Below are positions 4,903 through 36,323 of a stretch of DNA of 64,000 bases, piece by piece (the first letter of the stretch is position 1; each line of letters starts with the position of its first letter). A model generated the notes under the pieces. It did no database searches and had not been told where the DNA came from. It saw nothing but the letters and a program-made list of their open reading frames with translations. The translations under genes were made by a program, and so were the position numbers. This stretch comes from Arenicellales bacterium (lineage in GTDB: Bacteria; Pseudomonadota; Gammaproteobacteria; Arenicellales; JBFEOO01): positions 1,865-65,864 of the forward strand of contig JBFEOO010000002.1 of NCBI GenBank assembly GCA_041550555.1, written 5' to 3'.

Positions 4903-5547
4903 TCAGTGGACCCCGCGTTCGATGCGGTCGATAAGATGTCGCATCTGCGGCTGCTTGGTGCGCATCGCCGCGATGTTGGCCACCAGTCGTGCGCTGATGT
5001 GCGCGATGTGCTCGACCTCCACCAGGGCGTTGGCAGCGAGCGTCTGGCCCGTGCTAACGAGGTCGACGATACGGTCCGCAAGCCCCGACAGGGGCGCGAG
5101 CTCCATCGAGCCGTACAGCTTGATCACCTCGGTCTGAATCCCTTTGCTCGCGAAATGGCGCCGCGTCGTATGCGGGTATTTGGTGGCGATGCGCAAACGC
5201 GTCCAGCGGCTGGGATCGTCCGCCAGCGCCAACTCGCGCGGCTCGGCCACCACCATGCGGCAGCGTGCGATAGCGAGGTCGATCAGCTCGTAGAGCTCCG
5301 TCCCACCGTGCTCCATGAGGACATCCTTGCCCACCACGCCGAGATCGGCCGCTCCGAATTGAACGTAGGTGGGGACGTCGGCCGCCCGCACGATGACCAG
5401 CCTCACCGCTGCATCGCTCGACGGCAGGATCAGCTTGCGCGTGACGAGCGGATCCTCCAGGGGAACGATGCCGGCCTGGGCGAGCACCGGCAGGGCTTCC
5501 TCGAGGGTTCGCCCTTTCGACACGGCGATGGTCAGTGCGTTGGACAC
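4903..5547 (-). CDS. hisG: ATP phosphoribosyltransferase, short form (HisG-S)
   Basis: The 214-aa ORF starts [18 protein letters not shown] and has LVSTGQTL. Its length indicates the short HisZ-dependent form. It is the first gene of the his operon. Confidence 0.9.
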
Positions 5548-5673
5548 GCTGTCACCCTCGGCGTACGGCCGGTCGCCTCGTCAGGGGCGCAGCCGGCGAG
5601 TCGGGACCGTCGGGCGGCACCCGGCGGCGCCCGGTGGGCGCCCGCTTCACCACCGTCGGCTGCGTCGTGCGAC

Positions 5674-6975
<1,302 letters not shown>

Positions 6976-29681: not shown

Positions 29682-30470
29682 TCACGATGTCCGCATCGCG
29701 ACCAGATGGGTGACGGCGAACAGCACGACCGCGGCGACGACGATCGCCGGCCCCGCCGGTGCGTCCCAGGCGAGCGAGGCGAGCAGGCCTGCGCCGACCG
29801 AGGCGCAGCCGCCCAACCCGGCGAACACCGCCATCTGCTCGGGCGTCACGGCCAATTTGCGGGCCGTCGCCGCCGGTATGATGAGCAGCGAAACAATGAG
29901 CAGTACACCCACGATCTGCATCGCGACGGCGATCACCAGGCTGAGCAGCAGCAGAAACGCGACGTCAACGAAGTGGGTGGGCACGCCCTCGACCCGGGCG
30001 ATATCCTCATGCACGGTGCTCGCCAGTAGCGGGCGCCACAACGCGGCCAGGGACCCCAGACAGACGGCACCGCCCGCATAGATCCATATCAGATCGATAG
30101 GCGCCACCGCCAGGATGTCGCCGAACAGGTAGCCGAGCAAATCCACCCGCAGCGACTCCATGGTCGAGATGACGATGAGTCCGAATGCCAGCGTGCCGTG
30201 CGCCAGGATCCCGAGCAGCGTATCGGTGGGCAGCTGACGCTGGCGCTGCAGGGTGAGCAGCAGCAGCGCGACCGCTGGGCTGACGACGAGGATACCCAGC
30301 CGCACGTCGATACCGATGACGAGTCCGACGGCAATCCCCAGCAGAGCGGAATGGGAGAGCGCTGCGCCGAAATAGGCCATTCGGCGCCACACCACGAAGC
30401 AGCCCAGCGGCGCAGCGATCAGGGCCACCCCCACGCCGGCGACCAGAGCGCGCAGCAGAAAGTCATGCAC
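29682..30470 (-). CDS. znuB: Zinc ABC transporter permease ZnuB
   Basis: The 262-aa polytopic ORF is of ABC-3 family type. It overlaps the znuC stop by 8 nt. Confidence 0.88.
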   Translation of the reverse strand: MHDFLLRALVAGVGVALIAAPLGCFVVWRRMAYFGAALSHSALLGIAVGLVIGIDVRLGILVVSPAVALLLLTLQRQRQLPTDTLLGILAHGTLAFGLIVISTMESLRVDLLGYLFGDILAVAPIDLIWIYAGGAVCLGSLAALWRPLLASTVHEDIARVEGVPTHFVDVAFLLLLSLVIAVAMQIVGVLLIVSLLIIPAATARKLAVTPEQMAVFAGLGGCASVGAGLLASLAWDAPAGPAIVVAAVVLFAVTHLVAMRTS

Positions 30471-31338
30471 GGTGGTCGTCTCCCGGCGGCTCGGCGAGCT
30501 TCACCTCCCCGCCGAGATCGTGCCGGTGATCGTGACGGTGGCGGTAGACCGCGAGGCGATCCTGCAGGCCGGTGCCGAACAGCGCCAGATACTCCGGATG
30601 CCGGCTCACCGCATCGGGACGACCAGCGCAGCAAACATGATGGTTGAGACACACGACGCGATCCGTGGCCGCCATGACGAGGTGCAAATCATGGGAGACG
30701 ATCAGCACACCGGGTCGACGCCGATCGCGCAGCGCCTGGATCAGCTCGTAGAGCTCGGCCTGCCCGGTGACGTCGACACCCGCCGCCGGCTCATCGAGCA
30801 CGAGCAAATCCGGCTCACGCAGCATGGCGCGCGCCAGGGCGACACGCCGCGCCTCGCCCCCCGACAGCGTCTGAAACGGCGCATCGGCCAGACTCAGGCA
30901 GCCCACTTCGCGCAGGGCTTGCTCGACGCGCTCCGACTCGACCCCCCCTGCCAACGCCAGGAAGCGCCCTACGTTGAGGGGCAACGTGGGGTCGACGTGA
31001 ACGTGCTGGGGAACATAGCCCAGCCGCAGGCCGGGGCCGCGGACGACGGATCCTGCCGCCGGCGCGAGCAGCCCCAGCACGAGCCGTACCAGCGTGGTCT
31101 TGCCCGATCCGTTGGGTCCTATCAGCGACACGATCTCGCCGCGATGCACCGCCAGATCGACGCTGTCGAGAACGCGCCGGCGCCCGAACTCAACCGTGGC
31201 ACCCTGAACCTCGACCAAGACGTCCGCTGCGCGGTCCGGCGCGGGCTGCTCCAAGACGCGCCCCGCCTCGGGCTCAGCGCGCCGGCGCGGCACGGCGCCG
31301 GCTCCCGCCGCAGCTCGGACACAACCCCTCGAGCTCAA
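30463..31338 (-). CDS. znuC: Zinc ABC transporter ATP-binding protein ZnuC
   Basis: The protein has GPNGSGKTT, LSGGEARRVALARA, LVLDEPAAGVD and a C-terminal His-rich tail (HRHDHRHD). The ATG at 31338 overlaps zur by 64 nt. A TTG at 31254 is an alternative start. Confidence 0.85.
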   Translation of the reverse strand: MSSRGCVRAAAGAGAVPRRRAEPEAGRVLEQPAPDRAADVLVEVQGATVEFGRRRVLDSVDLAVHRGEIVSLIGPNGSGKTTLVRLVLGLLAPAAGSVVRGPGLRLGYVPQHVHVDPTLPLNVGRFLALAGGVESERVEQALREVGCLSLADAPFQTLSGGEARRVALARAMLREPDLLVLDEPAAGVDVTGQAELYELIQALRDRRRPGVLIVSHDLHLVMAATDRVVCLNHHVCCAGRPDAVSRHPEYLALFGTGLQDRLAVYRHRHDHRHDLGGEVKLAEPPGDDHRA

Positions 31339-31789
31339 CCGTCTGGCGCTCCGTGCGGAAGCCTATGGCACCGGCTTTCTGCGCCAATATGCCCGTGATG
31401 TCGGTATCGGCGAGCTCCGCGACGGCCTGGCAACGCTTGCAGATCAGAAACTGGCCGCTGTGATCCGCCTCGGGGACCGTGCAGCCGACGTAGGCGTTGA
31501 GCGACTCGATGCGGTGGACGAGGCCGTTTTCTGACAGAAACGTGAGCGCCCGGTAGACAGTCGGGGGAGCGGCCCGCGCGCCTTCGAGCCGCAGCCGCTC
31601 GAGCAGGTCGTAAGCAAGCACTGGGCCGTGCTGCCCCCAGATCATCTCGAGCACCCGGCGCCGCATCGGCGTCAGCCGGACGTTGCGGGCGGCGCATAAC
31701 CGCGCCGCCTTGTCCAAGGCCTCGAGGACACAGCGCTCGTGATCGTGACCCTGGGTCGGAAAACTGGCGCGCATCAGCGGGCTGGCCAT
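31274..31789 (-). CDS. zur: Fur-family zinc uptake regulator Zur
   Basis: The 171-aa ORF has a winged-helix region (TVYRALTFLSENGLVHR) and CxxC pairs (CKRC, CPSC). It is the first gene of zur-znuCB, divergent from znuA. Confidence 0.88.
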   Translation of the reverse strand: MASPLMRASFPTQGHDHERCVLEALDKAARLCAARNVRLTPMRRRVLEMIWGQHGPVLAYDLLERLRLEGARAAPPTVYRALTFLSENGLVHRIESLNAYVGCTVPEADHSGQFLICKRCQAVAELADTDITGILAQKAGAIGFRTERQTVELEGLCPSCGGSRRRAAPAR

Positions 31790-31821
31790 GAGCGGCGATG
31801 CCTCTTGCTCCGTGGGGTTTC

Positions 31822-31841
31822 TGTTATGTTATAACATTATA
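31822..31841. promoter_or_regulatory. Zur box in the zur-znuCB / znuA divergent promoter region
   Basis: A perfect 12-bp palindrome ATGTTATAACAT (31826-31837) sits inside a 20-bp imperfect palindrome TGTTATGTTA|TAACATTATA (8/10 arm matches). It resembles the proteobacterial Zur consensus (GTTATA..TATAAC core) and lies in the 78-bp intergenic region. Confidence 0.8.
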
Positions 31842-31867
31842 CCACCACACCCGACGACAACCGCCCG

Positions 31868-32836
31868 GTGCTCAGCTCACTCCGCCGCACGCGGCGCATC
31901 GCCGCCGCTCTCGCCGTCAGCGCAGCCGTGCTGCCCGCTGCCGCAGCCGCCGTCTCGCCTCGCGTGGCGGTGACCATAAAGCCTGTTCACTCGCTGGTGG
32001 CGGGGATCATGGGGGACATCGGCGAGCCGGCGCTGCTGCTACATGGTGCGGCGTCACCGCACACGTACACGATGCGGCCGTCGGACTCCCGTCGCCTGGG
32101 CGAGGCAAACCTCGTCATTTGGGTCGGCGAGGCACTGGAGACCTTCTTCGCGCGCACGGCGCGTGTGCTGGCGCAGCGTGTCAACGTCGTCGCGCTCATG
32201 GACGCCGAAGGCCTGAGCCTTTTGGGGGCCCGCCATGCCGGCGCCTTCGCCGTGGCCGGGCCCGACGCGGACGACCATGCCCACGGGCACCGCTATGATC
32301 CGCATTTCTGGCTCGACCCCACCAACGGCCAGGTCATCGTGAAGGTGGTCGCCCGTTCGCTGGCCGAGCAGGACCCCGACAACGCCGGCCGCTACGAGGC
32401 CAACGCCGCCTCCCTGGTGCTGGCGCTCGAGCGCCTCGACGCGGAGCTCGAGCTCCGCACGGCGCCCGTCCGCAGCATTCCCTACGTCGTGCTGCACGAC
32501 GCCTACCAATACTTCGAGCGCCGTTACCGACTCAACGCGGTCGGCGCGCTGAGCGTCGGAACCGATCGCGCCATCGGTGCCCGTCGGGTCACGGAGATTC
32601 GCGCCGCAATTGCGAGCAGCGGGGCCGTGTGCGTGTTCGTCGAGCCGCAGTTCGAGCCGCGCCTGGTGCACACCGCCCTCGCAGGCACCGGCGTCAGCAT
32701 CGGCGTGCTCGATCCGCTCGGCGGCGAGATCCCCGCCGGTCCGTCGGCCTACTTCACACTGCTGCGGCGACTCGCAGACGCGCTCGTCGGCTGTCTGAGC
32801 GACCCGTCGGCCGCCGGCCCGCGGCAGCACGGCTGA
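31868..32836 (+). CDS. znuA: Zinc ABC transporter substrate-binding protein ZnuA
   Basis: The protein has a signal peptide, a PHTYTMRPSD motif, a His/Asp-rich loop (DADDHAHGHRYDPHFWLDP) and a GTG start. Confidence 0.9.
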   Translation: MLSSLRRTRRIAAALAVSAAVLPAAAAAVSPRVAVTIKPVHSLVAGIMGDIGEPALLLHGAASPHTYTMRPSDSRRLGEANLVIWVGEALETFFARTARVLAQRVNVVALMDAEGLSLLGARHAGAFAVAGPDADDHAHGHRYDPHFWLDPTNGQVIVKVVARSLAEQDPDNAGRYEANAASLVLALERLDAELELRTAPVRSIPYVVLHDAYQYFERRYRLNAVGALSVGTDRAIGARRVTEIRAAIASSGAVCVFVEPQFEPRLVHTALAGTGVSIGVLDPLGGEIPAGPSAYFTLLRRLADALVGCLSDPSAAGPRQHG

Positions 32837-32893
32837 CACGTTAGCGGCGCGAGGCTGGATTCCGGCCGCTTCGATGCCCTACCATCGCGGGCT

Positions 32894-33511
32894 ATGAGCG
32901 CGGGGCAACACGACCACGACGCGCCGCTGCCGGAGACGGTGCTGCGGGTGAAGGCGCTCGAGTCGCTGCTCGTCGAGAAGGGGCTCGTCGACCCCGCCGC
33001 GCTCGACGTCTTGATCGATACCTACGAGACGAAGGTGGGGCCGCGCAACGGGGCGCGCGTGGTGGCCCGCGCCTGGGCGGACCCCGCGTACCGACGCCGG
33101 CTGCTGGAAGACGCCAGCGCGGCCATCGCGGATATGGGCTTCTGCGGACGTCAGGGCGAGGACATGGTCGTGGTGGAGAACACGGACCGTGTGCACAACA
33201 TGGTGGTGTGCACGCTGTGCTCGTGCTACCCGTGGCCGGTGCTCGGCCTGCCGCCGGTGTGGTACAAGTCGGCCCCCTACCGGGCGCGCGCCGTCGCCGA
33301 TCCGCGCGGCGTGCTCGCCGAGTTCGGCGTCACCCTCGGCGACGACGTGGAGATACGGGTCTGGGACAGCACTGCCGAGGTCCGCTACCTGGTGCTGCCT
33401 CAGCGCCCGGCCGACACGGACGGCTGGAGCGAGGAACGACTCGCCGAGCTCGTCACGCGCGACTCGATGATCGGCGTCGGTCTGCCGGCGCGGCCCCCGC
33501 AGGCAGCGTGA
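32894..33511 (+). CDS. nthA: Nitrile hydratase alpha subunit, cobalt type
   Basis: The 205-aa ORF carries the metal-binding motif [10 protein letters not shown] at 33209-33226. Thr in C-T-L-C-S-C marks the Co type. Flanking NHase-alpha sequence is present ([19 protein letters not shown]). Confidence 0.92.
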
Positions 33512-33828
33512 ACGGCGCCCACGATCTCGGCGGCATGCACGGCTTCGGACCCATCGAAGCGGAGCCCGACGAGCCCGTGTTCCACGCCGAGTGGGAGCGG
33601 CGCGCCTTTGCGCTGACGCTCGCCATGGGCGCCCACGGCGCATGGAACATCGACATGTCGCGTTACGCCCGCGAACGTATGGCGCCAGGCGCCTACCTCG
33701 CGACGAGCTACTACGAGCACTGGCTACACGGCCTCGAGCTCTTGCTCGTCGAGAAGGGTTTTCTCACCCGCCAGGAGATCGACAGGCGCATGGCGGAGAT
33801 CGCGGCACAGGAGGCACAGGAGGCGTAG
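33508..33828 (+). CDS. Nitrile hydratase beta subunit, N-terminal half as a separate ORF
   Basis: A GTG at 33508 overlaps the alpha stop (GTGA). The product reads [35 protein letters not shown]...[17 protein letters not shown], the conserved N-domain of NHase beta. It ends with a TAG at 33826-33828 in the interdomain linker. Confidence 0.85.
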
Positions 33829-34184
33829 TGCCCGTCTTGACTGCGGATCGGGTCGAGGAGATGCTGCGCCGCGGCACCAGCGCGCGGCTGCCCGAGAATG
33901 GCCCGCCACGTTTTCGCCGCGGCGAGCGCGTCGTCGCGCGCAACATCAACCCGGTCACCCACACGCGCGTGCCACGCTACCTGCGGGGACGTGTCGGCAC
34001 CATCGAGCGTTGTCACGGCGTGTTCATCTTCCCCGACGCACACGCACACGACGGAACCAAGGAGCCGCAACAGCTCTACAGCGTGCGCTTCGAGGCGGCC
34101 GAGCTGTGGGGACCGGATGCGCCGGTCGCAACCGATGCCGTATACGTCGATCTGTTCGAACCTTACCTGGCGCCAGCGCCCTAG
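33828..34184 (+). CDS. Nitrile hydratase beta subunit, C-terminal half as a separate ORF
   Basis: A GTG at 33828 shares one nucleotide with the preceding TAG (TAGTG), and AGGAGG lies 4 nt upstream. The product has PRFRRGERVVARN...HTRVPRYLRGRVGTIERCHGVFIFPDAHAHD...LYSVRFEAAELWG...VYVDLFEPYL, the conserved beta C-domain. An in-frame ATG at 33861 is an alternative start. Confidence 0.8.
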   Translation: MPVLTADRVEEMLRRGTSARLPENGPPRFRRGERVVARNINPVTHTRVPRYLRGRVGTIERCHGVFIFPDAHAHDGTKEPQQLYSVRFEAAELWGPDAPVATDAVYVDLFEPYLAPAP

Positions 34185-34276
34185 GGCGGTGTCGCCGCGC
34201 ACCGCCGCCGCAGCGCCGCCTGGTGCGCTTCCGCCTGACGCCAGCTGTGCCATCCGGCGCCGCGGCGACGCTCGCC

Positions 34277-34639
34277 ATGCCCGCTGCGCCTGATCTCCGC
34301 TCGCTGCCGACGCTACCGCAAGACCGCGACGGGCCCGTGTTCGCCGAGCCGTGGCAGGCCCAGGCCTTCGCGCTCACCGTCAAGCTCCACGAGGCCGGTC
34401 ATTTCACCTGGAGCGAATGGGCAGACGCGCTCGGTGGAGAGATCGCCGCCGCCCGGGCCGCCGGCGATCCCGACCTTGGTGACACCTACTACCTGCACTG
34501 GCTGCGCGCGCTCGAAAACCTTGTCGCCCGCAAAGGACTGGCGTCGGCCGCCGAGCTGGCGCGGCGCCAGGCGGAGTGGGACGAGGCGGCGCGGCGCACC
34601 GAACACGGGCGACCCATCGAGCTGCCGGGGCGGCGTTAG
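34277..34639 (+). CDS. Nitrile hydratase accessory (activator) protein, P14K/NhlE-like
   Basis: The 120-aa product contains GPVFAEPWQAQAFALTVKLHEAGHFTWSEWADALGGEIA...YYLHWLRALENLVARKGL, the pattern of Co-type NHase accessory proteins. The start at ATG 34277 lies within the longer track ORF. Confidence 0.8.
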   Translation: MPAAPDLRSLPTLPQDRDGPVFAEPWQAQAFALTVKLHEAGHFTWSEWADALGGEIAAARAAGDPDLGDTYYLHWLRALENLVARKGLASAAELARRQAEWDEAARRTEHGRPIELPGRR

Positions 34640-34925
34640 GCGGCCGGCAACGTCACCGCAGCGCGGCGCACCAGGCAGAGCCTGGACAGCGGCGCGGCGC
34701 TGGTCGCACGCCGCCGCCGTCATGGCTCTGGGGGGCGGCGTGCTCGCACGCCGCGCGAGCGCGGCAGCTGCCCGGCGCGAGGGCCCGAGGCACCCGCGAC
34801 CCGGCGGTGCGAGCGGTGGGTCGCTGCATCGCGGCCAGGCAGCCCGCACGCGCCCTGGCCCGCGCTGTTACCTGAGGCTTTCCGGTCGCGCGACGGTTAT
34901 CGTCGGACGGGGGGACGCCACCCGC

Positions 34926-36323
34926 TCACGCGCTGTCTCCGCCTCCCCCGCCCGTGAAGCGCCAGCGCGTGCCTTGCGCCCCGTCCTCGAGGGCGACCCC
35001 GCGCTCCAGCAGCTCGTCGCGAATGCGGTCGGCCGTGGCGAAGTCTTTCGCACTGCGCGCCGCGCCGCGGGCCGCGATCAGACGCTCGATCTCATCGATC
35101 TCGATCTGCGCGTCGCCGCGCCGCTCGAACCACTCCTCGGGCCTCTGCCCCAACAGACCGAGCACCTCGCCGGCCGCGAGCAGCTGGGCCTTGTAGCGGG
35201 CCCGCTCCGCGGAGTCGGCGGCGGCGTTGGCGGCGCGCGTCAGCTCGTGCAGCTCAGCGAACGCCTGCGGCGTGTTGAGGTCATCCTCGAGCGCGGCCAT
35301 GACGGCCGGGGGCGGCGCCGCATCCGGCGCCGGCGCCACGTCACCGAGATCCCGCAGCGTGCCGTAGAGCCGGTCGAGGCTGCGCTGCGCGCGGGGCAGC
35401 GTCTGCGCCGACCAGTCGAGCGGCTTGCGGTAATGAGCGCCCAACAGGGCCGCGCGGACCGTCTCGCCCGGTGCCTGCGCCAACAGGTCCCGCACCAGCA
35501 GAACGTTGCCGAGAGACTTGGACATCTTCTCCTGATCGACGTTGACGAAACCATTGTGCACCCAGTGTCGGCAAAACAGTTTGCCGCCGTGCGCGCAAGT
35601 GCTCTGCGCGATTTCGTTCTCGTGATGGGGAAAAACCAGATCCTGCCCGCCGCCGTGGATATCGATGGTCTGGCCCAGGTGCGCCTCGATCATGCACGAG
35701 CACTCGAGGTGCCAGCCCGGGCGCCCGCGCCCCCAGGGGCTGTCCCAACCGGGGAGATCGTCGGTGGACGGCTTCCAGAGCACGAAGTCGGCCGGGTCGC
35801 GCTTGTAGGGGGCCACCTCCACGCGGGCCCCGGCGATCATGTCCTCTCGCGCGCGGCCCGACAGCCGGCCGTAAGCGGCAAACGACGGCACGTGGAACAG
35901 CACGTGGCTTTCGACCTCGTAGGCGTGACCTTGCGCGATGAGGCGCTCGACCATGGCGATCATGCCGTCGATGTGGTCGGTCGCCCGCGGCTCGAGCGTA
36001 GGCGGCAGGACTGCGAGCGCCTCCATGTCGTGGTGGTAGATCGCCGTGTAGCGGTCACTGACGGCGGTAATCGGCACCCCGGCCTCGGCGGCGGCCGCAT
36101 TGATCTTGTCGTCGACGTCCGTGATGTTGCGCGCGTAGACGACGCCGTAGTGACGCCGCAACACCCGGAACAGAACGTCGAACACCACCGCCGGACGCGC
36201 ATTGCCGATATGCGGGTGGCTGTACACGGTCGGCCCGCACACGTACATCGTCACCCGCCCGGGGTCCGCCGGCACCAGCGGCTCCTTGCGACGCGTGAGC
36301 GTGTTGTAGAGCTGTATGGCCAT
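34926..36323 (-). CDS. cysS: Cysteine--tRNA ligase
   Basis: The 465-aa ORF has [19 protein letters not shown] (HIGH) and KMSKSLGN motifs. Confidence 0.95.

Follow-up and report, generated by a model that had tools for sequence, protein, structure and literature searches.

The DNA described here, referred to below as the window, is a stretch of 64,000 nucleotides from an Arenicellales bacterium (assembly GCA_041550555.1, contig JBFEOO010000002.1, positions 1,865 to 65,864 of the forward strand). It contains a group of four genes, all on the forward strand, that are predicted to encode a cobalt (Co)-type nitrile hydratase (NHase) whose beta subunit is divided between two open reading frames (ORFs), together with an accessory protein. 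These genes and the associated sequence features are listed below in window coordinates, with the lengths of the predicted products in amino acids (aa).

32894-33511, + strand: NHase alpha gene, Co-type; 205 aa, ATG start
33206-33235, + strand: alpha metal-binding motif, within which lie VCTLCSCY (33206-33229) and CTLCSC (33209-33226)
33508-33828, + strand: beta-N gene (beta N-terminal domain); 106 aa, GTG start
33805-33822, + strand: tandem 9-nt duplication, GCACAGGAG x2
33826-33830, + strand: TAGTG junction between beta-N and beta-C
33828-34184, + strand: beta-C gene (beta C-terminal, SH3-like domain); 118 aa, GTG start
34277-34639, + strand: accessory gene, P14K/NhlE-type, a paralogue of the beta N-domain; 120 aa, ATG start

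The metal-binding motif, the duplication and the junction were read directly from the sequence. The alpha stop codon is overlapped by the GTG start of beta-N as GTGA, and the TAG stop of beta-N has one base in common with the GTG start of beta-C in the sequence TAGTG, the beta-C frame being -1 relative to that of beta-N. An AGGAGG Shine-Dalgarno (SD) motif is positioned 4 nt before the beta-C GTG (33818-33823) and a further AGGAGG is present at 33809-33814; both are provided by the duplication, such that GCACAGGAG x2 yields the SD motifs for beta-C and also encodes the QEAQEA tail of beta-N. One copy of the 9-nt repeat is missing in a relative with 96% identity (L081), in which the beta-N stop is shifted.

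An earlier note on this DNA had described four ORFs at these positions, and all four are present, with sequence and profile matches in agreement. Its account of the couplings also holds: a beta-N ORF joined to alpha through GTGA and ending with TAG in the interdomain linker agrees with the coordinates and with an alignment to the Pseudomonas putida enzyme (see below), and a beta-C GTG within TAGTG, in another frame and 4 nt after AGGAGG, is what is read in the sequence. The Co-type motif that it had reported in alpha at 33209-33226 is present, but this interval spans CTLCSC only, the full motif occupying 33206-33235.

Family assignment and conserved residues

The alpha product matches PF02979 (E 4.3e-91) and passes model TIGR01323 with 315.2 bits against a cut-off of 249.85. 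Beta-N matches PF21006 (E 3.7e-45) and covers positions 1-102 of the 226 positions of the beta subunit model TIGR03888, and beta-C matches PF02211 (E 1.9e-33) and covers positions 117-226. The gene at 34277-34639, previously proposed to encode a P14K/NhlE-like accessory protein, scores 101.7 bits on TIGR03889 (cut-off 46), in keeping with that proposal; its weaker match to PF21006 (E 1.9e-12) is as expected, since proteins of the P14K/NhlE type are paralogous to the N-terminal domain of beta.

Thr and Tyr at the motif positions seen in alpha constitute a Co-type signature, and the solved structures closest to alpha are all Co-type. The closest solved structure for alpha, beta-N and beta-C alike is the Co-NHase of P. 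putida NRRL-18668 (PDB 3QXE), and alpha scores 324 bits against 3QXE_A. Residues 1-93 of beta-N line up colinearly with the same positions of P. putida beta, including R52, Y68/Y69 and the YYEHWLH segment, and residues 2-117 of beta-C align with P. putida beta 104-219, including NPVxHTRxPRYxRG (E ~7e-29 in each case). From these alignments, the cut falls between the equivalents of P. putida beta residues 103 and 104, in a variable linker. Both halves thus keep the conserved beta motifs, as had been claimed earlier, with R52 and Y68/Y69 in beta-N and H45, R47, P49 and Y51 in beta-C. The latter four are invariant across the family, and we take the Arg of this H-x-R-x-P-x-Y motif to be the equivalent of beta-Arg157 in the Pseudonocardia thermophila enzyme.

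The locus therefore contains the features that identify a Co-NHase, namely the alpha metal site, the beta domains with their Arg and Tyr residues, and a P14K/NhlE accessory, and it also has those of a three-subunit NHase, with separate beta genes that have their own start signals and a split that is heritable and maintained. A single-polypeptide beta passing the equivalog model TIGR03888 is not present. On the basis of these sequence comparisons the enzyme is assigned to the P. putida NRRL-18668 type of Co-NHase (alpha-beta-P14K), and the earlier reading of the locus, as a Co-type NHase with coupled beta ORFs split at the linker and a P14K-like accessory, is supported both by the family matches and by the relatives described below.

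The split beta subunit is inherited

Species-representative genomes were scanned with split-only sequences, and relatives were found in more than 588 genomes; the best 80 loci were used for locus comparison, and junctions were compared in a set of 35 split loci that includes the window. Almost all of the best 80 loci have their genes in the order alpha, beta-N, beta-C, accessory, with beta fused in 44 of the 80 (214-227 aa), split in 34 and truncated in two. Split genes divided at the same linker are present in 34 of the 78 nearest species-level genomes (~43%). Among 5.8 billion proteins searched, the close homologues of beta-C (96% to ~45% identity) are almost all stand-alone PF02211 proteins of 113-121 aa that begin at a homologous M-P-x-L. 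More broadly, in a library reduced to representatives at 50% identity, beta-C has matches in 794 clusters (E <= 1e-10), and the best 150 of these include ~20 complete stand-alone beta-C proteins and ~60 full-length fused ones, the remainder being fragments.

The junctions vary in sequence and are conserved in position. A 1-nt stop/start overlap (TGATG, TAATG or TAGTG) occurs in 26 of the 35 split loci, at the homologous M-P-x-L start, with a TAGTG identical to that of the window in L047, and an SD-like purine tract precedes beta-C in 28 of the 35. The 96% identical L081, which is from an independent sample, has two ORFs with an ATG start for beta-C and a beta-N that is 12 nt longer and ends with TGA, and two relatives at 78% identity, also from independent samples (L082 and L083), have two ORFs joined through TGATG. 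Because the junctions differ between independent relatives, an assembly error is an implausible source of the split. Ratios of nonsynonymous to synonymous substitution rates (dN/dS), calculated against a relative 78% identical in beta-C, come to 0.14 (beta-C), 0.18 (beta-N) and 0.19 (accessory gene). The beta split is not an artefact; it is inherited, and both halves are under purifying selection.

The earlier note had regarded a contiguous beta ORF in relatives as the sign of a spurious split. The nearest relatives (96%, 78% and 68% identical) are all split, as are the Arenicellales-like genomes that share synteny with the window, and the split is real, although much commoner than that note implied, given its frequency among the 78 nearest genomes and its occurrence on plasmids in RefSeq. 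The same four-gene order is found on plasmids of the cultured Aminobacter sp. MSH1 (pUSP2), Agrobacterium vitis and Burkholderia, where CbtB and CbtA then follow. On pUSP2 the series is an amidase, nthA, two coding sequences annotated as 'SH3-like domain-containing protein' with a 1-nt overlap, and the accessory gene; the MSH1 genome papers make no mention of nitrile hydratase.

Proposed working of the enzyme

We predict with considerable confidence that the four genes form a translationally coupled operon for a Co-type NHase composed of three polypeptides. Alpha would carry the Co(III) site at CTLCSC, beta-N would form the helical arm that wraps alpha and supplies the equivalents of beta-Arg52 and beta-Tyr68, and beta-C would form an SH3-like barrel with the invariant Arg of H-x-R-x-P-x-Y, the two together standing in for the usual beta subunit of ~220 aa. 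Ribosomes terminating at the beta-N TAG would re-initiate at the overlapping GTG, aided by the AGGAGG 4 nt upstream, which should give roughly equimolar beta halves. The predicted assembly is an (alpha, beta-N, beta-C)2 heterohexamer equivalent to alpha2-beta2. By analogy with other Co-NHases, a complex of the accessory protein with alpha would take up cobalt and allow Cys oxidation, and the matured alpha would then be exchanged from this complex into the apo-enzyme by self-subunit swapping, generating an enzyme that probably hydrates nitriles to amides. We infer the assembly, the termination-reinitiation, the self-subunit swapping and the activity from NHase biochemistry and from the Streptomyces canus and P. 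putida systems.

The published three-subunit NHases provide a precedent, being active enzymes (PMC7329996). The S. canus enzyme AnhDEA is Co-type, with beta present as N- and C-terminal partial peptides of ~10-11 kDa, and all three polypeptides, AnhD, AnhE and AnhA, are required for activity (PMC7329996). It lacks an activator gene, with AnhD acting as metallochaperone and swapping chaperone, and is described as resembling the eukaryotic-type NHase (PMC7329996).

Several observations weigh against this interpretation. The spacing between the SD motif and the beta-C start is short (4 nt), the spacer between beta-C and the accessory gene is 92 nt long (34185-34276) as compared to 0-40 nt in most relatives, and there is no obvious SD sequence ahead of the accessory gene. 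Neither beta half reaches the TIGR03888 cut-off of 152.2 (142.7 and 129.1 bits for beta-N and beta-C respectively), although scores below the cut-off are expected because each is only half of the modelled protein. There is no amidase or cobalt transporter near the operon, and no experimentally studied cluster of alpha, beta-N, beta-C and accessory genes was found in the open-access literature.

Changes between fused and split forms

A neighbor-joining (NJ) tree was built from concatenated alpha, beta-N and beta-C of 71 loci, and the state of beta was mapped by Fitch parsimony on 100 bootstrap trees. The window is placed inside a mostly split gammaproteobacterial clade, and in 92 of the 100 bootstrap trees the root is reconstructed as fused. 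Between 7 and 11 changes (median 9) are counted between fused and split states, compared to ~23 with shuffled labels, although the count is a rough one and 'several' is firmer than any figure, because NJ on ~400 columns inflates the number of changes. A Met is almost never present at the junction position in the fused relatives, the exception being L016, which is sister to the split L080. The state of beta is thus heritable yet has changed several times, and this fits with a 1-nt indel in a tolerant linker.

A more speculative proposal, to which we give a low probability, is that fission and fusion are recurrent and reversible, with a 1-nt linker indel creating the stop/start overlap, and that a free beta-N is an intermediate on the way to self-subunit-swapping chaperones of the P14K type. 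If beta fission does recur in this manner, part of the chaperone work might fall to beta-N alongside the accessory protein, much as AnhD serves as a chaperone in S. canus.

Comparison with known systems

The P. putida NRRL-18668 enzyme (3QXE) resembles the locus in its Co-type motif and in having an accessory protein paralogous to beta-N, and we take its genes to be in the same alpha, beta, accessory order (see PMC3680314 for P14K). The two differ in that the beta subunit of P. putida is a single polypeptide of 219 aa, whereas at the locus there are two genes, with a 13-residue beta-N tail in place of the linker. Compared by description, the S. canus genes are in the order beta-N, beta-C, alpha without an activator, whereas the locus is alpha-first with a dedicated accessory gene. 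The Microvirga flocculans NHase shares with the locus three subunits and two beta-derived genes (PMC11573777), but these are parted by the alpha gene (PMC11573777), whereas at the locus they are adjacent with a 1-nt overlap. The thiocyanate hydrolase (SCNase) of Thiobacillus thioparus (2DD4) has beta (157 aa) and alpha (126 aa) subunits that correspond to the N- and C-domains of NHase beta, and is split in the same linker region as the locus, but it is distant and has other substrate chemistry. The toyocamycin nitrile hydratase ToyJKL of Streptomyces rimosus, whose genes encode alpha first, belongs to a deazapurine antibiotic cluster, lacks an accessory gene and has an alpha that is catalytically competent alone, in contrast to the housekeeping neighbors and accessory gene of the locus.

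The resemblance to these last two systems raises the alternative that the cluster is an orthologue of one of the specialised split-beta enzymes. The beta equivalent is formed by two polypeptides in both, as cited for the three-subunit ToyJKL in PMC7329996, and in ToyJKL alpha comes first (PMC7329996 for ToyJ, three-subunit TNHase). We nonetheless consider this alternative improbable. The alpha product passes the NHase alpha model and scores just 189.7 bits on TIGR03887, the model for the gamma subunit of thiocyanate hydrolase (cut-off 291.45), and the beta halves match SCNase chains B and A with E values of 6.8e-6 (beta-N) and 1.2e-4 (beta-C), far from the 7e-29 obtained with P. putida NHase. 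The neighboring genes are housekeeping and include none for deazapurine biosynthesis, and an accessory gene is present here, while none is reported for ToyJKL or the S. canus NHase (PMC7329996). Identity as a thiocyanate hydrolase is therefore rejected, from the failure of TIGR03887 and the distance of the beta halves from the 2DD4 chains, as is location in a toyocamycin/sangivamycin (deazapurine) cluster like that of ToyJKL, from the accessory gene and from neighbors that include znuABC, zur, cysS, ileS, miaB, phoH and lnt. The comparison to SCNase and ToyJKL drawn in the earlier note stands as an analogy, with no orthology to SCNase and probably none to ToyJKL, the enzyme being P. putida-type and only remotely related to SCNase.

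The order alpha, beta-N, beta-C, activator has no description that we could find in the open-access literature. This order and the retained activator set the locus apart from the published split-beta NHases, and it is an uncharacterised variant of the known three-subunit NHases.

Alternative origins of the two beta ORFs

Two further explanations concern the junction itself. The first, that an ordinary single beta gene has been interrupted by an indel arising in sequencing or assembly, or by a recent frameshift that made it a pseudogene, draws on the fact that one 1-nt linker indel interconverts the fused and split forms, on the fused beta genes in 44 of the 78 related genomes, and on obvious frameshift errors in some long-read metagenome-assembled genomes (MAGs), such as one inside beta-N of L021. 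It is already largely refuted, and we regard it as very improbable, since the independent samples at 96%, 78% and 68% identity are all two-ORF with different junction sequences, 35 loci have a precise start codon with an SD at the homologous position, the two halves have dN/dS values of 0.14-0.18, and the split is common to syntenic relatives whose flanking proteins are just 50-62% identical. Equally improbable is the production of a full-length beta, and thus a normal two-subunit NHase, by programmed -1 frameshifting or hopping with AGGAGG as the stimulator: although an SD-like element close to an in-frame stop recalls the prfB and dnaX recoding sites, the stretch 33815-33830 contains no slippery heptamer, every locus has a proper ATG or GTG at the homologous residue, gene callers and RefSeq annotate two proteins, and the frame offset is -1 or +1 depending on the locus, with overlaps of -20 to +2 nt, so that there is no single frameshift site or conserved recoding site.

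Implications

The literature regards three-subunit NHases (ToyJKL, S. canus and M. flocculans) as rare curiosities. Within the P. putida-type clade the split beta is common, occurring in Proteobacteria, Rokubacteria, Acidimicrobiia and others, and in this split-beta clade a conserved coupled junction coexists with a dedicated activator. The finding is of use in annotation and enzyme mining: RefSeq names the halves 'SH3-like domain-containing protein' or omits them, the equivalog models miss both, and active NHases may be thrown out as pseudogenes. For engineering, the place at which beta is naturally split indicates a permissive position within its linker. Known NHase chemistry is unchanged, and the evolutionary interest is mild and holds no surprise for the specialist.

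Genomic context and possible regulation

Upstream of the NHase genes are mgtE, lnt, corC, phoH, miaB, a Sel1-repeat gene, znuB, znuC, zur and znuA, and downstream are cysS, a tRNA-editing-domain gene, ileS, sufE and a GGDEF-EAL gene. The GC content is ~0.68-0.72 over most of the region without a compositional island at the NHase genes, values of 0.75-0.76 being limited to a downstream intergenic stretch (~34400-35400). Searches of the whole 64 kb with tblastn gave no match to an amidase-signature amidase, CbtA or CbtB, other amidase families not having been searched exhaustively, and no amidase is among the Pfam families of ten genes scanned on both flanks (21.5-29.6 kb and 36.4-46.7 kb); the absence of an amidase noted earlier is thus borne out for amidase-signature enzymes. 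Neighborhood clustering across the 80 loci identifies no partner gene conserved beyond the four NHase genes, and an amidase is adjacent in only ~6 of them, so that the neighborhood gives no clue to the substrate.

The block containing znuB-znuC-zur, znuA, the NHase genes and the tRNA-editing gene is syntenic with an Arenicellales MAG (L022) and a gammaproteobacterial MAG (L028), with flanking proteins 50-62% identical, and both MAGs have split beta genes with TAATG junctions. The synteny and the shared split show that in this lineage the split is an old one, passed on vertically. The synteny also makes an Arenicellales-like gammaproteobacterium the probable source of the window.

A perfect palindromic Zur box, TGTTATGTTATAACA, is located at 31822-31836 between the divergent zur-znuCB and znuA genes (region 29682-32836), and is the sole such site in the 64 kb (0.03 expected by chance). 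NHase alpha is on the same strand as znuA and starts 57 nt past the stop of that gene, with no terminator-like site in the gap; L022 and L028 likewise have the Zur box and an NHase cluster next to znuA. In view of the Zur box, the short gap and the lack of a terminator-like site, the NHase operon of this Arenicellales-like lineage might be expressed by read-through from znuA, itself under Zur control, so that a cobalt enzyme would be tied to the response to zinc starvation; no Zur-NHase link was found in the open-access literature. A scan of 31200-35200 finds no promoter-like site and one terminator-like match, which lies inside beta-C and is at chance level. No RNA families are found in the whole window with Rfam, and there is no riboswitch or rRNA. 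In L078, which has a fused beta, a znuA-like gene directly follows the accessory gene. The intergenic region between the convergent accessory and cysS genes (34640-34925) is ~76% GC and contains an inverted repeat (34706-34743), possibly a bidirectional terminator.

Variation among related loci

The split-beta cluster on the plasmid of Burkholderia sp. PAMC 26561 is interrupted between nthA and beta-N by an IS3-family transposase (L086:1435-2609). Naming in RefSeq is inconsistent (L087:2543-3351, L088:2663-3330), with the Aminobacter and Burkholderia halves both called 'SH3-like domain-containing protein', even the non-SH3-like beta-N, and both beta halves are absent from the gene table of Agrobacterium vitis. 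An Acidimicrobiia MAG (L066:794-1424) has five genes in the order alpha, beta-N, beta-N', beta-C, accessory, its tandem beta-N paralogues being 68% and 52% identical to beta-N of the window. A Minwuiaceae MAG (L004) carries two complete split-beta clusters within 6 kb (137-1431 on the minus strand and 5047-6717 on the plus strand), with an accessory gene after the second cluster only, within the stretch examined. In a Methylomirabilia MAG (L054:11820-12152) the accessory gene is ~5.5 kb downstream of a fused beta. Among the protein library matches, P0129 and P0169 have an NHase_beta_C domain followed by a weak NHase_beta_N-like domain, and may be beta-C/accessory fusions or frameshift artefacts, and P0077 and P0085 have ~80-95 additional C-terminal residues with no Pfam match.

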